This document shows, one piece after another, positions 15,036 to 24,226 of a stretch of DNA of 42,130 nucleotides. A program made the translations under genes and the position numbers. The DNA is taken from the IMG/VR virus record IMGVR_UViG_2917398303_000001. One strand, given 5' to 3'. This stretch comes from a virus (Duplodnaviria > Heunggongvirae > Uroviricota > Caudoviricetes). A model generated the notes under the pieces. That model saw only the letters and a program-made list of their open reading frames with translations. It searched no databases and was not told the origin of the DNA. The number at the start of each line of letters is the position of its first letter. Positions within the stretch are counted from its first letter, which is position 1.

Positions 15036-15171
15036 CCGATTACCGGATACTGAAGAATTACGCCAAAACACTGGCAGAGACAATTGTATGAAGCCAGAGA
15101 TAACGATCGGTTGATGCCGTTTTATTGTTTTTTGCTGCCAATTGGCGTGCTGGTGTAAATGGAGAGCGAGA

Positions 15172-15924
15172 ATGAATCTTGAGGCCTTACCAAAATATTA
15201 CTCCCCAAAATCTCCAAAATTGAGCGATGACGCACCGGCGACAGACTCAGGTGGTTTATCAATTACGGATGTGATGGCTGCGCAGGGGATGGTGCAGTCG
15301 AAAGCACCGCTTGGGTTTGCCTTATTCCTGGCAAAAGTTGGTGTTCAGGACCCTCAGTTTGCGATTGAAGGTCTGCTCAATTACGCGATGGCACTGGATA
15401 ACCCGACATTGAATAAATTGAGTGCAGAAACACGGTTACAGATTATTCCTTACCTCGTGAATTTTGCCTTTGCTGATTATTCCAGGTCTGCGGCAAGTAA
15501 GGCTCGCTGTGAGCATTGTGCTGGTACGGGATTTCATAATGTATTGCGCGAAGTGGTGAAACATTCCAGAAGCGGGGAATCCGTTATCAAGGAAGAGTGG
15601 GTGAAGGAACTATGTCAGCATTGTCATGGTAAGGGAGAAGTCAGCACAGCGTGCAGAGGGTGTAAGGGTAAAGGTATTGTCCTGGATGAAAAAAGGACCC
15701 GGCTTCATGGCACGCCTGTTTATAAGATTTGTGGGCGTTGCAATGGAAACCGGTTTAGCCGTTTACCAACCACACTGGCGCGGCATCATGTCCAGAAACT
15801 GGTACCGGACCTGACGGATTATCAGTGGTACAAGGGGTATGCTGATGTTATTGATAAACTGGTTACAAAGTGCTGGCAGGAAGAAGCATATGCAGAAGCA
15901 CAGTTGAGAAAAGTGACAAGATAA
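15172..15924 (+). CDS. late-gene antiterminator Q (DLP12/phage 82 type)
   Basis: 250 aa from ATG at 15172; multiple CxxC zinc motifs (CEHCAGTG, CQHCHGKG, CRGCKGKG, CGRCNGN); followed by a promoter and early terminator as expected for PR'/qut/tR'. Confidence 0.8.
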   Translation: MNLEALPKYYSPKSPKLSDDAPATDSGGLSITDVMAAQGMVQSKAPLGFALFLAKVGVQDPQFAIEGLLNYAMALDNPTLNKLSAETRLQIIPYLVNFAFADYSRSAASKARCEHCAGTGFHNVLREVVKHSRSGESVIKEEWVKELCQHCHGKGEVSTACRGCKGKGIVLDEKRTRLHGTPVYKICGRCNGNRFSRLPTTLARHHVQKLVPDLTDYQWYKGYADVIDKLVTKCWQEEAYAEAQLRKVTR

Positions 15925-16058: not shown

Positions 16059-16292
16059 TTTAAATGGGGAGGTGGCTGGATGTCTAAAATAAACATTGCT
16101 TCCAAGTGTACAACTATGCGTTAATGGCTGCGTCGGTTTGAAGAACAGACGATATACGAAGTAGTTTACTAAAGCAGTTCTCATTTCAGGTGTTATTCAC
16201 TTATTCCTTCTTTGAGTCTCTCCAATTAAGTACGAAGTCGTTTCTGTTATACAAATCATTTATGCCGAAAGGCTCAAGTTAAGGAATGTAGA

Positions 16293-16508
16293 ATGTCAAA
16301 TAAAATGACTGGTTTAGTAAAATGGTTTAACGCTGATAAAGGTTTTGGCTTTATTTCTCCTGTTGATGGTAGTAAAGATGTGTTTGTGCATTTTTCTGCA
16401 ATTCAGAATGATAATTATCGAACCTTATTTGAAGGCCAAAAGGTTACCTTCTCTGTAGAGAGTGGTGCTAAAGGTCCTGCAGCAGCAAATGTCATTATTA
16501 CTGATTAA
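16293..16508 (+). CDS. CspA-family cold-shock protein
   Basis: 71-aa ORF with RNP motifs ([12 protein letters not shown]; VFVHFSAI); about 230-nt upstream leader, as is usual for csp genes. Confidence 0.9.
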
Positions 16509-16708
16509 AATTCATAGCTTGTCTGTATACGATAACGAAGAAGGCTGATGCCTGAGTAGAGATGCAGATAGAGTTGTGGGTATTGAATCCCATTTTGTGG
16601 TGAAGTGCAGGTTTGCTGCATGAATAGTTTTACAGTAGAAGCTAACTGCTGGCATAGCAATACAAAGTGCGTAAGTGGGTAACTACCACAAAAAGCACCA
16701 CAATCTCA

Positions 16709-17181: not shown

Positions 17182-17397
17182 ATGAAATCAATGGATAAGT
17201 TAACAACAGGTGTCGCCTATGGCACCTCTGCAGGCAGTGCTGGCTACTGGTTTTTACAGTTGCTCGATAAAGTCACGCCATCACAGTGGGCGGCAATAGG
17301 TGTGCTGGGTAGTCTGGTATTTGGCCTGCTGACGTACCTGACAAACCTTTATTTCAAGATTAAAGAAGATAAGCGTAAGGCTGCGAGAGGTGAATAA
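17182..17397 (+). CDS. S: class II holin (phage 21 S-type pinholin) with dual-start motif
   Basis: 71 aa, MKSMDK dual-start, two TM helices, charged C-terminus; matches S21. Confidence 0.9.
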
Positions 17398-17894
17398 TGT
17401 CGCCATCATTACGCAAGGCTGTTGCAGCTGCTATTGGTGGTGGGGCTGTTGCCATAGCGTCTGTGCTCATCACTGGTCCGAGTGGTGACGATGGTCTGGA
17501 AGGTGTCAGCTACATACCATATAAAGATATCGTTGGCGTATGGACTGTATGTTACGGGCACACCGGAAAAGACATTATGCTCGGTAAAACGTATACCGAA
17601 GCAGAATGCAAAGCCCTCCTGAATAAAGACCTTGCCACTGTCGCCAGACAAATTAACCCGTACATCAAAGTCGATATACCGGAAACAACGCGCGGCGCTC
17701 TTTACTCGTTCGTCTATAACGTGGGCGCAGGCAATTTCAGAACATCTACTCTTCTTCGCAAAATAAACCAGGGCGATATCAAGGGCGCATGTGACCAGCT
17801 ACGTCGCTGGACATACGCTGGCGGTAAGCAATGGAAAGGCCTGATGACTCGTCGTGAGATTGAGCGTGAGGTCTGTTTGTGGGGGCAACAATGA
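17397..17894 (+). CDS. R: SAR endolysin (phage lysozyme, T4-lysozyme-like fold)
   Basis: 165 aa; N-terminal Gly/Ala-rich signal-anchor-release segment ([20 protein letters not shown]) then lysozyme domain; start overlaps the holin stop. Confidence 0.9.
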
Positions 17895-18328
17895 GCAGAG
17901 TCACCGCGATTATCTCCGCTCTGGTTATCTGCATCATCGTCTGTCTGTCATGGGCTGTTAATCATTACCGTGATAACGCCATCACCTACAAAAAGCAGCG
18001 TGATAAGGCCGCATCCATTATCGCTGACATGCAGAAGCGTCAACGTGATGTAGCAGAACTCGACGCCAGATATACAAAGGAGCTTGCTGATGCTAACGCG
18101 ACTATCGAAAGTCTTCGTGCTGATGTTTCTGCTGGGCGTAAGCGCCTGCAAGTCGCCGCCACCTGTGCAAAGTCAACGACCGGAGCCAGCGGCATGGGCG
18201 ATGGAGAAAGCCCAAGACTTACAGCAGATGCTGAACTCAATTATTACCGTCTCCGAAGTGGAATCGACAAGATAACCGCGCAGGTTAACTACCTGCAGGA
18301 GTACATCAGGACGCAATGCCTGAAATAA
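17891..18328 (+). CDS. Rz: i-spanin Rz
   Basis: ATG at 17891; N-terminal TM helix then coiled coil; contains the embedded Rz1 frame. Confidence 0.85.
18084..18275 (+). CDS. Rz1: o-spanin Rz1 (lipoprotein embedded in the +1 frame of Rz)
   Basis: 63-aa ORF entirely within Rz; lipobox LLGVSAC; proline-rich mature region. Confidence 0.75.
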
Positions 18329-18530: not shown

Positions 18531-19073
18531 ATGAATTATCCAACTATCGTTAACGGCATCGATTTCCGAGATCTGATTTTTGTGGCAAACAACGATCCGG
18601 TTACAGATTCTTTTATGGTGGCAAAAGCATTTGGAAAGCTGCCGAAGAACGTAGTTCGTGACATTGAACGAACCATAGAAGCTTGCCCTCCTGAGTTTGA
18701 TACAAAGCTCAACTTTGAGCTTTGCTATAAAAACAATGAGTTACAGAATGGTAAGCCGCAAAAATTCTACCGTCTCCGCAAGGATGGGTTGATGCTTTTG
18801 GTTATGTCCTACACCAAAAAAGAAGCAATGCGTATCAAAATTGCTTACATCAACGCATTCAACTGGATGTACGCCATGCTTCAGGTTGGTCATCGTCAAT
18901 TTGAAGAAGAGCGAAACGCCGTAATGCTGGAGTACATGAAAGAAAAGGATGTCGCCAGCATGTCTGGCCGTCTGCTCAATCGCTGGGGAAAAATTAAGAA
19001 GCCTCAGCTAATGGCGAGAATTGAACGCCTTGAACAGCACGGGCAAACCGTAATCCCCGGACTCACTAATTAA
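18531..19073 (+). CDS. Rha-family phage regulatory protein
   Basis: 180-aa ORF with AAAGGTGA RBS; N-terminal region (VTDSFMVAKAFGKLPKNVVRDIERTIE) resembles the Rha domain. Confidence 0.55.
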   Translation: MNYPTIVNGIDFRDLIFVANNDPVTDSFMVAKAFGKLPKNVVRDIERTIEACPPEFDTKLNFELCYKNNELQNGKPQKFYRLRKDGLMLLVMSYTKKEAMRIKIAYINAFNWMYAMLQVGHRQFEEERNAVMLEYMKEKDVASMSGRLLNRWGKIKKPQLMARIERLEQHGQTVIPGLTN

Positions 19074-19551
19074 CGGCAGTACCACGAAACAACCCAAGCC
19101 AGAAAGTGGGGAAATAACACTGGCAGCCACTGAAAGATGAACCTCCAGCCTTATGGCAAAAAAGATTCTTTGTGGTGGCGGACTGATGGAAAGACATCGG
19201 TTATTGCAGAGACCATTCAATGAGTGGTCTCGACAATGGCTTATACCCTACACGGGATAACTTAACTGATATCCCTTTTAACGGATAAAGGTATTCAAGC
19301 CTGACACATCATGCGCTGTATCGTCGCTGTATTCCCGCATTAACCATGACCGTAGCCCGACGGGGAACTCCTTCTGCGCGAGTGTGCGGGAATAATCAAA
19401 AACGATGCACACCGGGTTTTTACCGCGTTTATGATTCGCGGGGTTGTCCCTCATGCTCGCCAGTCCTGTGCGGGGGTGGAAGAAACAGGACGTGTATTCA
19501 GGTCTGTGCGACCGTGGTCGCACGCATTTCTTTTATTGCTTTGAGGTAGAT

Positions 19552-19761
19552 ATGTCAGTTGCTGTTTTCGAGGCACTCAATGCACGTATTAACCAACTTG
19601 AAAGTAAGCTGAAGGAATACGATCAGCGACAGGCTGAGGCAGATGAGAAGACTCAGAACGAACTTTTCCTGGAGTTTCTTGCCATCGTTCACGAACTGAT
19701 GCCGTTAGTTAATCAGGCGCTGATGACAGGGCTGAAGGATGGAGATTTACACAGTAGGTAA
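19552..19761 (+). CDS. hypothetical coiled-coil protein (69 aa)
   Basis: ATG at 19552 after GAGGTAG RBS; last gene before cos. Confidence 0.4.
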   Translation: MSVAVFEALNARINQLESKLKEYDQRQAEADEKTQNELFLEFLAIVHELMPLVNQALMTGLKDGDLHSR

Positions 19762-19810: not shown

Positions 19811-19822
19811 GGGCGGAAGGCG
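19811..19822. other. cosN: 12-nt cohesive-end site (GGGCGGAAGGCG), flanked by lambda-like cosQ and cosB
   Basis: Flanking sequence (GTTACG | 12-mer | CGCGGGTTTTCGCTATTTATGAAAATTTTCCGG...) matches the lambda cos context, immediately upstream of nu1. Confidence 0.65.
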
Positions 19823-19999: not shown

Positions 20000-20519
20000 A
20001 TGGAAGTCAACAAAAAGCAGCTGGCTGACATTTTCGGTGCGAGTATCCGTACCATTCAGAACTGGCAGGAGCAGGGAATGCCCGTTCTGCGGGGTGGTGG
20101 CAAGGGTAATGAGGTGCTTTATGACTCTGCCGCCGCCATAAAATGGTATGCCGAAAGGGATGCTGAAATTGAGAACGAAAAGCTGCGCCGGGAGGTTGAA
20201 GAACTGCGACAGGCCAGCGAGACAGATCTCCAGCCAGGCACTATTGAGTACGAACGCCATCGACTTACGCGTGCGCAGGCCGACGCACAGGAGCTGAAGA
20301 ATGCCAGAGACTCCGCTGAAGTGGTGGAAACCGCATTCTGTACTTTCGTGCTGTCGCGGATCGCAGGTGAAATTGCCAGTATTCTCGACGGGATCCCCCT
20401 GTCGGTGCAGCGGCGTTTTCCGGAACTGGAAAACCGACATGTTGATTTCCTGAAACGGGATATCATCAAAGCCATGAACAAAGCAGCCGCGCTGGATGAT
20501 CTGATACCGGGGTTGCTGA

Positions 20520-20545
<26 letters not shown>
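20000..20545 (+). CDS. nu1: terminase small subunit Nu1
   Basis: 181-aa ORF near-identical to lambda Nu1 (MEVNKKQLADIFGASIRTIQNWQEQGMPVLRGGGKGNEVLYDSAAAIKWY...). Confidence 0.97.

Positions 20546-24226
<3,681 letters not shown>

Follow-up and report, generated by a model that had tools for sequence, protein, structure and literature searches.

The prophage in IMG/VR record IMGVR_UViG_2917398303_000001, analysed here over its whole stretch of 42,130 nucleotides (the window), is lambdoid (lambda-like) and raises the question of what is carried by the DNA between its lysis and its packaging genes, where the stop codon of a Rha-like gene at 19073 and the next well-started open reading frame (ORF) at 19552 enclose a gap without a conserved ORF (19074-19551). 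An earlier note on this DNA had described ca. 470 bp without a convincing ORF as well as a perfect 8-bp inverted repeat with a T-rich tail at 19506-19523, and we can confirm both descriptions. Homology and covariance-model searches, which the note had suggested, additionally uncovered what it had missed, a conserved element at 19312-19491 (the core element) and a hairpin at 19203-19237 (H0), with no Rfam family corresponding to them. The gap is the untranslated junction at which the lysis block of the lambdoid late operon gives way to the packaging block, and it is a stack of conserved non-coding modules of this operon rather than a spacer. Its core element is very probably a conserved structured RNA element of the plus strand and, judging by homology, is widely conserved yet unannotated, in lambda as well as in most Escherichia coli genomes.

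The core element and its fold

The core element spans ca. 180 nt of the plus strand and is predicted to form six helices, P1 to P6. Its overall shape is that of a long irregular 5' hairpin composed of P1 (19318-19324/19402-19408), an internal loop, P2 (19330-19340/19384-19394), P3 (19351-19355/19374-19378) and the apical P4 (19356-19358/19363-19365), followed by a variable middle part, P5 (19414-19416/19448-19450 enclosing 19423-19427/19437-19441), and, at the 3' end, the hairpin P6 (19463-19469/19485-19491), whose conserved loop is rich in purines (..GGUGGAAGAA). RNAalifold proposed P1, P2, P4 and P6 from 57 distinct sequences, P3 was added by us to these helices, and the weaker P5 came from a RNAalifold prediction with 11 diverse sequences. 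Two single-stranded stretches are conserved as well, AUAAUCAAAAACGAU between P2 and P1 and GGAAGAAA in the loop of P6.

This fold is carried by the pattern of substitutions among its homologues. In an unfitted MAFFT alignment of the 57 distinct sequences, 97.4% of the cells are standard pairs versus 31-62% when the partners are slid, and none of 500 shuffles reached the observed covariation score. A covariance model built from this alignment (R1) scores 228 bits at 19306-19500 and matched nothing else in the window. After realignment of 35 distinct sequences that include lambda, K-12 DLP12, 933W-type phages and the Salmonella phages ES18 and S135, we counted ten pairs with compensatory changes on both sides, a number reached in 0 of 500 shuffles; slid-partner controls gave one to seven such pairs and 30-61% paired cells versus the 96.6% observed, and counts of this kind had a false-positive rate of 0-1% in the tool's trials. 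The core element thereby shows compensatory pairs beyond both shuffles and slid-partner controls, as is generally asked of a new motif. The Salmonella type alters both sides of three P2 pairs (UAUUCCCGCA/UGCGGGAAUA to UAUCAUCGCA/UGCAAUGAUA) and of five of the six P6 pairs (GUCCUG/CAGGAC to UCUCGA/UCGAGA), and the plain MAFFT alignment shows both sets of changes. G.U cells are far more frequent (198 at 14 pair positions) than A.C cells (17 at six), and the plus strand therefore appears to be the folded strand under selection; compared with shuffles, the plus strand folds with z = -3.4 and the minus strand with z = -2.2.

None of the 4227 covariance models of Rfam 15 matches the element at the gathering threshold, permissive scans (E up to 10) gave nothing at 19129-19505, and a scan of 20 related loci (including lambda, ES18, HK620 and K-12 DLP12) found nothing at the element. 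Below the threshold, matches in the gap or close to it were limited to Proteo-phage-1 at 19093-19128, IS009 at 19131-19229 and PhrS at 19506-19570. We dropped readings of the element as a tRNA-like RNA, a ribozyme or a retron non-coding RNA, given that no Rfam model matched and that no reverse-transcriptase gene is found among its recurrent neighbours. In the literature on lambdoid late transcripts, lambda transcriptomes and the flanking genes, we found no description of the element.

Distribution, position and coding content

Parts of 19074-19552 were matched by megablast in 421 phage records (Escherichia, Shiga toxin (Stx)-converting, Shigella and Salmonella phages), most of which carry no annotation beneath the match, and a more sensitive search for distant homologues matched 503 records. 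Identity across the gap is modular: its left-hand homology breakpoints cluster at 19203, 19222, 19284 and 19312 and its right-hand ones at 19419, 19450, 19491 and ~19522; 19312-19419 is common to every homologue and the hairpin at 19463-19491 to most of them. The copy in lambda lies at 46868-47035 between bor and lambdap78, the one of DLP12 in E. coli K-12 at ~579009-579185 between borD and ybcV, and that of the 933W-type Stx2 phage II between bor and the terminase gene, while further carriers comprise mEp460, Ayreon, 2B8 and JLK-2012 as well as the Salmonella phages ES18, S135 and 29485. At least one copy is present in 3852 of 5426 complete E. coli genomes (71%), with up to six copies per genome. 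A scan of one genome per species with a strict pattern for the 3' part returned Escherichia records and three short records under unrelated names (a Nanosynbacter metagenome-assembled genome (MAG), a Thiomicrorhabdus contig and a soil Proteobacteria MAG), which we take to be contamination or misbinning. This pattern is too stringent for the divergent Salmonella type, and scanning with an S135-type pattern yielded chiefly chance matches along with seven real, near-identical copies.

The surroundings of the element were surveyed by locating the core in 115 loci, orienting each locus on the element and clustering the surrounding ORFs. In 96 of these loci, Rz precedes the element on its own strand; the closest upstream gene is Rz itself (38 loci), an oppositely oriented bor (32), Rha (16) or some other small gene (15). 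On the downstream side, the closest gene is one of DUF1398 (33 loci) or ylcI (16), both on the opposite strand, a small terminase gene of a second type (19), a gene for a TonB-like lipoprotein (11) or Nu1 (9). Altogether, five upstream and six downstream classes of neighbours occur, and the five downstream genes named here are mutually unrelated and found on either strand. Because Rz is upstream and co-oriented in most loci while the adjoining genes vary, we conclude that the element keeps its place and orientation in the late operon, upstream of cos or the terminase genes, while its neighbours are exchanged. The distance to the next start codon on the plus strand ranges from ~10 to >1000 nt, and in 933W-type phages and ES18 only a short distance separates the element from the small terminase gene behind it.

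Tandem pairs of the element, with 0.8-1.8 kb between the copies, are present in some phage contigs. This is the case for the contigs L265 (5051-5244 and 6001-6194), L333 (6155-6349 and 7941-8134), L328 (2513-2707 and 4298-4491) and L032 (12452-12645 and 10728-10860); in the latter, the second copy is truncated and two genes are located between it and the full copy. The tandem arrangement looks like cassette insertion by recombination between elements.

The gap is non-coding, and no reading frame in it is conserved. Stop codons interrupt each of the six frames in 33 of 64 distinct cores of 185 nt; across these 64 cores, the frame of a minus-strand ORF of 81 codons (19278-19523) is open in six and that of a plus-strand ORF of 67 codons (19346-19549) in 28; single-base insertions and deletions occur inside the core, and many variants have lost the start codon of the plus-strand ORF through a change of CCATG to CAGAG. 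For the three codon positions, column entropy averages 0.32/0.31/0.20 (plus frame) and 0.32/0.20/0.31 (minus frame), so that third positions show no excess variation in either. Pfam returned no match for the ORFs of the gap, and PHROG returned none for the minus-strand ORF and a single, partial one for residues 1-28 of the plus-strand ORF (PHROG 6954, 'Rz-like spanin'). The earlier note had thus rightly called the minus-strand ORF unconvincing, but this ORF is only the longest and not, as stated there, the sole one, given that the 67-codon ORF, a minus-strand ORF of 70 codons (19008-19220) and several shorter ones are also present.

Various small ORFs have been annotated over the element in other phages: Stx2 phage II (L140, 2493-2738) has a plus-strand ORF labelled 'Rz-like spanin', like PHROG 6954; locus L263 (1461-1643) has a 60-aa hypothetical protein called by PGAP on the minus strand; and locus L001 (1684-1932) has mEp460_059 on the plus strand. 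These mutually incompatible ORFs are likely spurious calls on conserved non-coding DNA. The earlier note had named conserved protein homologues of the minus-strand ORF as an observation that would speak against its view. Formally such entries exist (the 60-aa PGAP protein and, on the plus strand, PHROG 6954 and its counterpart Stx2II_p167), but they are translations of conserved DNA and not conserved proteins.

The palindrome, other modules and the surrounding genes

The inverted repeat noticed earlier (our repeat I7) reads GTGCGACC-GT-GGTCGCAC at 19506-19523, with two perfectly (100%) complementary arms of 8 nt separated by 2 nt, and is directly followed by a T-rich tail, GCATTTCTTTTATTGCT (19524-19540; the sequence 3' of the palindrome is GCATTTCTTTTATTGCTTTGAGG, also given as GCATTTCTTTTATTGC). 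As RNA it would form a stem of 7-8 bp with a 4-nt loop (-13.2 kcal/mol). A terminator scan reports it with eight pairs (five of them G-C), a loop of four and the tail CATTTCTTTT, and 19505-19540 has the stem expected of an intrinsic terminator (GC-rich, at least 5 bp, loop of 3-8 nt) as well as a tail, CAUUUCUUUUAUU, with at least five T in 8 nt, though the run is interrupted. The window contains the exact 18-mer a single time. Of 2000 dinucleotide-shuffled versions of 19080-19551 (472 bp), 3.9% had a perfect 8-bp inverted repeat with a loop of 2-8 nt, and only 0.45% had such a repeat followed by a T tract. The palindrome directly follows P6 here, in phage 2B8 and in few other loci, and the stem in 2B8 shows a compensatory G-C to A-T change (GTGCAACC..GGTTGCAC). 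The purine-rich loop of P6 can pair with the T tract behind the palindrome as an alternative fold. Viewed from the core element, only six of 50 distinct downstream contexts have a terminator-like hairpin and T tract behind P6, and this scarcity argues against the element being a self-contained gene that ends in a terminator.

Scanning viral contigs for GTGCGACCNNGGTCGCAC revealed at least 120 loci. Among the matches listed, there are up to four copies per 10 kb, and copies fall into 22 flank classes of which 14 recur (at least 14 unrelated contexts), in both orientations and mostly in context families without a T tract. Of seven tabulated contexts, five have a comparable T-rich tail behind the palindrome, but few of the context families do. 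Some copies are located just after HK97-type major capsid genes and others inside small ORFs, where they encode ATVVA, while the commonest context had no match in the GenBank phage set or in complete E. coli genomes. Individual contigs can carry several copies, as seen for L275 (1338, 6548, 9581 and 9801) and L032 (10743, 12429 and 12649), and more are found in L265, L289, L311 and L316. In L032 the full core element has a palindrome on both sides, 220 bp apart, and the truncated second copy ends in a palindrome; the same 220-bp pair surrounds an element copy in L265 and L275.

The palindrome of the window is thus a plausible intrinsic terminator by its sequence features, and as a family it behaves like a dispersed junction hairpin or recognition site. 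Of the two options offered by the earlier note, a terminator or a protein-binding palindrome, the former agrees with the form of the hairpin and the compensatory change in 2B8, and the latter fits the recurrence of the palindrome, mostly without a T tract, at least as well. The palindrome, which the note had placed directly upstream of the last gene before cos, is not peculiar to that gene, as the same 16 nt recur in many unrelated contexts of phage contigs. With its GC-rich hairpin and T-rich tail the palindrome resembles intrinsic terminators, and its dispersal between genes and at gene ends within a single set of genomes resembles that of the repetitive extragenic palindromic (REP) sequences and bacterial interspersed mosaic elements (BIMEs) of E. 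coli and the intergenic hairpins of phage T4. It differs from these elements in that most of the copies listed elsewhere lack the T tract and some are found inside ORFs; its sequence is unrelated to the REP consensus, and it has no associated transposase or binding protein.

Three more modules lie upstream of the core element. M1 (19066-19200, plus strand) is a conserved non-coding stretch right after the stop codon of the Rha-like gene that is homologous to the region upstream of hkbM in HK620 and also common to Chlobot and POCJ13; homology to this HK620 region overall extends over 19066-19289, and 19066-19119 has homologues in ES18 and S135 that directly adjoin the core element there. Within M1, 19093-19128 matches the Proteo-phage-1 model (RF03044) with 16.8 bits versus a gathering score of 42 (E = 0.95-4). 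The unpaired flanks of this model (CCccaG ... gaAAaAACaCCGGCAGCC) resemble those at 19093-19128 (CCCAAG ... GAAAUAACACUGGCAGCC), but its two hairpins of 28 and 26 positions are replaced by 6 and 6 nt, and no Proteo-phage-1 match at threshold was found in the 20 related loci that we scanned. The segment may be a reduced relative of Proteo-phage-1 at the same kind of locus, and this likeness concerns M1 and not the core element.

H0 (19203-19237, plus strand; inverted repeat I2) is an imperfect hairpin with 17 positions per arm of which 15 are paired, a conserved CA/GA internal mismatch and no T tract; its RNA fold has -24.2 kcal/mol and z = -7.4. It occurs in three variants with compensatory changes (ATTG..CAAT versus ATTA..TAAT and AGAGACC/GGTCTC versus AAGCCC/GGGCTT) that show T.G wobbles on the plus strand. 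Copies occur immediately behind the stop codons of various genes in P22-like as well as lambdoid phages, namely in HK620 (L261, 1226-1262 and 1479-1515), ES18 (L262, ~1903-1939) and JLK-2012. M2 (19238-19311, plus strand) links H0 to the core element and is >95% identical in 23 distinct sequences, a variation too small for a test of structure. The segment 19222-19289 is 94-100% identical in P22-like phages without the core element (HK620, CUS-3 and SEN22).

The genes around the gap are all encoded on the plus strand. PHROG assignments identify a Q-like antiterminator (15142-15924), a class II holin (17182-17397), an endolysin (17397-17894), Rz (17879-18328) and the Rha-family gene (18531-19073) on its left and the small (Nu1-type TerS, 20000-20545) and large (TerL, 20520-22445) terminase subunits on its right. 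The final ORF before cos comprises 69 codons (19552-19761) behind a Shine-Dalgarno motif (GAGG, 19544-19547) and is probably a truncated remnant, because its likeness is confined to the start of longer proteins: it weakly matches PHROG 2571, a profile of 291 positions and unknown function, and its first ~57 residues look by eye like the start of an ORF in L032 of ~287 aa (if it starts at MKELQ) that is preceded by the same palindrome. Further downstream, the cosQ-like segment 19779-19810 aligns with the final 32 bases of lambda (...ACGGGTCCTTTCCGGTGATCCGACAGGTTACG) and is followed by the predicted 12-nt cohesive end (cosN), GGGCGGAAGGCG, at ~19811-19822, with nick positions given by homology to lambda only. 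This predicted end differs from that of lambda (GGGCGGCGACCT) at five positions, with nearly identical sequences on the flanking cosQ-like and cosB sides. A lambda-type cos is also recognisable in L032.

The sole Rfam matches at gathering score in the window are a cspA thermoregulator and a tRNA. The former, a full-length match with 155.9 bits at 16132-16524 between the Q gene and the holin gene, indicates a cspA-type cold-shock-protein moron on the plus strand with a thermosensor in its 5' untranslated region, just downstream of the late promoter region. The tRNA gene (1369-1441, 71.8 bits) lies near the left end of the window and could be phage-borne or a host tRNA gene at the prophage boundary.

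Possible roles of the core element

As to what the core element does, we tentatively favor a role as a cis-acting processing or stability module of the Q-antiterminated late mRNA, a reading to which we give not quite even prospects. Because the element lacks conserved promoter and terminator sites of its own, it would be transcribed within the late mRNA, that is, as part of the Q-antiterminated pR' transcript, or by read-through from upstream morons such as Rha; one weak promoter-like site was found (19406-19435), and its -10 hexamer lies in a segment that differs between phages. A folded segment that is either recognised by a nuclease or resistant to nucleases could then part the lysis-gene portion of this very long mRNA from its packaging and head portion and set the relative stability of the two, with H0 and the palindrome as end-protecting structures, and in this prophage the palindrome with its T tract may stop polymerases without Q modification before they reach cos and the terminase genes.

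Known processing signals offer a functional model for such a module. The RNase III signals of the polycistronic T7 mRNAs (R0.3 to R18.5) and of the lambda sib and N-leader regions are irregular hairpins in which an internal loop separates a lower from an upper stem. They lie in untranslated junctions of long phage transcripts, and the 3' hairpin that remains after cleavage determines how stable the upstream message is. The core element resembles T7-type sites in its position between gene blocks and in the succession of P1 (7 bp), an internal loop (5 nt/7 nt) and P2 (11 bp), a shape that is undiagnostic when taken alone. It differs from them in having no sequence similarity, in its larger, multi-domain build (P3-P6) and in its conserved loop sequences, which are not a feature of RNase III sites, and cleavage is hypothetical in the case of the element. 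The putL and putR RNAs of phage HK022, two stem-loops in ~70 nt just downstream of the early promoters, are likewise cis-acting folded untranslated segments of a lambdoid transcript, as the element would be if it acts in cis; in contrast to their setting, late antitermination is served by the Q protein here, and similarity to them was compared via the Rfam scan only. We regard the closest analogies, i.e., T7 RNase III hairpins, REP-like hairpins and HK022 put RNAs, as functional and not homologous.

Several points weigh against the fold or the role that we favor. The middle part, P5, is poorly conserved, our alignment A4 was fitted to the model, and the sequences are closely related (Escherichia and few Salmonella phages), so that independent compensatory events are few. 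G.T wobbles are also tolerated in hairpins of single-stranded DNA, and the strand bias does therefore not strictly separate RNA from single-stranded DNA. The edges of the modules coincide with clusters of breakpoints, and in some phages genes lie between two copies of the element, which a role as recombination anchor at the DNA level would also explain. Furthermore, lambda bor and lambdap78 are listed as non-essential for plaque formation in the table of a CRISPR interference essentiality map (PMC10695390), and because these flanking genes are tabulated in this way any role of the element is probably modulatory.

A more far-reaching proposal, which we consider rather unlikely, is that the core element represents an undescribed functional phage RNA family that is present also in lambda and active in lytic growth, with the palindrome (GTGCGACC-NN-GGTCGCAC) as its cognate recognition or junction signal. 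Such an active role would be, for instance, that of an RNA that processes itself or recruits proteins and sets how strongly lysis genes are expressed relative to packaging genes, or that of a decoy for a host nuclease or defence system. It is unlikely, too, that the element is a stable RNA acting in trans (a small RNA, a protein sponge or decoy, or an anti-defence RNA in lytic growth) that is cut from the late transcript between H0 and the 3' hairpin. The discrete, strongly folded unit with its conserved single-stranded stretches (AUAAUCAAAAACGAU and GGAAGAAA) would suit such an RNA, the very stable flanking hairpins could protect its ends, the element is conserved independently of its flanking genes, and lambdoid prophages are rich in small RNAs (PMC4104026; bioRxiv 10.64898/2026.05.13.724894). 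Yet no promoter is conserved, a terminator follows in few contexts (6/50), and ~180 nt of mostly paired RNA are unlike the Hfq-dependent prophage small RNAs of 50-100 nt. An independent small RNA gene was rejected given that it lacks a conserved promoter and terminator of its own. The small RNAs of lambdoid prophages, AgvB (RF02702), AsxR (RF02703), PasA-D, STnc100, DicF and IsrK, resemble the element in being non-coding and in occupying conserved prophage positions in E. coli and Salmonella. They differ from it in not being located at the junction of lysis and packaging genes, and no Rfam model of theirs matches the element: the moron site downstream of PR' houses AgvB, AsxR and their relatives, and the Pas genes adjoin the holin/lysozyme operon (PMC4104026; bioRxiv 10.64898/2026.05.13.724894), and anti-small RNAs measure 51-60 nt (PMC4104026). 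AgvB, AsxR, Pas and STnc100 were accordingly dismissed as the identity of the element.

A role of the modules and the palindrome as DNA-level recombination anchors, at which morons and packaging modules are swapped by homologous or site-directed recombination at the junction of lysis and packaging genes while the fold is incidental or forms in single-stranded DNA, appears quite unlikely as the sole explanation but is compatible with the RNA roles. It would account for the breakpoints that pile up at the module edges on both sides, the combination of five upstream with six downstream neighbour classes, the tandem second copies with inserted genes (L265, L328 and L333) and the truncated one in L032, and the palindromes on both sides of the element (L032, L265 and L275) and at the truncation point in L032. 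Exchange between lambda and defective prophages in the area of the element is reportedly the subject of one study. But recombination anchors need sequence identity and not pairing; selection on a folded plus strand is indicated by compensation within P2, P3 and P6 and by the 198:17 ratio of G.U to A.C cells, and no recombinase gene is consistently adjacent. That the element is instead a cis-regulatory leader (a riboswitch, thermosensor or protein-binding operator) for the translation or transcription of the next gene is very unlikely: loops and junctions are conserved as in ligand- or protein-binding RNAs, 933W-type phages and ES18 have the small terminase gene shortly behind the element, and the P6 loop can alternatively pair with the T tract in the window, but the downstream gene changes wholly and is often on the opposite strand (DUF1398 at 33 loci, YlcI at 16), the next plus-strand start is at a widely variable distance (~10 to >1000 nt), and there is no conserved expression platform in the form of a terminator or a helix sequestering the Shine-Dalgarno motif and no Rfam riboswitch match. 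The minimal reading of the earlier note, according to which the gap is spacer DNA and the palindrome alone is functional, as a Rho-independent terminator or protein-binding site ahead of the last gene before cos, is highly improbable. The terminator features, the rarity of such a repeat with a T tract among shuffles and the covarying stem in 2B8 agree with a terminator, and 16 identical nt in many contexts would suit a sequence-specific binding protein; these points leave the conservation and covariation of 19203-19491 unexplained, most copies of the palindrome among the matches listed lack the T tract, some lie inside ORFs, and a terminator-like site follows the element in six of 112 loci. 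Least credible of all is that the locus serves to encode a small protein, be it the 81-codon minus-strand ORF or the 67-codon plus-strand ORF, which corresponds to ORF C87 of Stx2 phage II. Pipelines did call ORFs here (mEp460_059, CDS 86/87 of Chlobot, Stx2II_p167 and the 60-aa PGAP protein), PHROG 6954 matches the first 28 residues of the plus-strand ORF and its frame is open in 28 of 64 variants; against this stand the cores without any stop-free frame (33/64), the minus frame that is open in only six, the insertions and deletions, the lost start codons, the absence of a third-position excess and of Pfam matches, and the disagreement of annotators over frame and strand.

Lambda and its relatives are among the best-studied genomes, yet the core element has been left unannotated in them or been annotated as small ORFs or 'Rz-like spanin'. 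If it is a functional RNA, it would add a post-transcriptional control point to the late operon that drives lysis, Shiga toxin release and virion production, and its model would enable annotation pipelines to remove spurious ORFs. The element also marks an exchange hotspot for morons (bor, Rha, the lipoprotein gene and DUF1398), so that the mechanics of lambdoid mosaicism become testable at a defined sequence.

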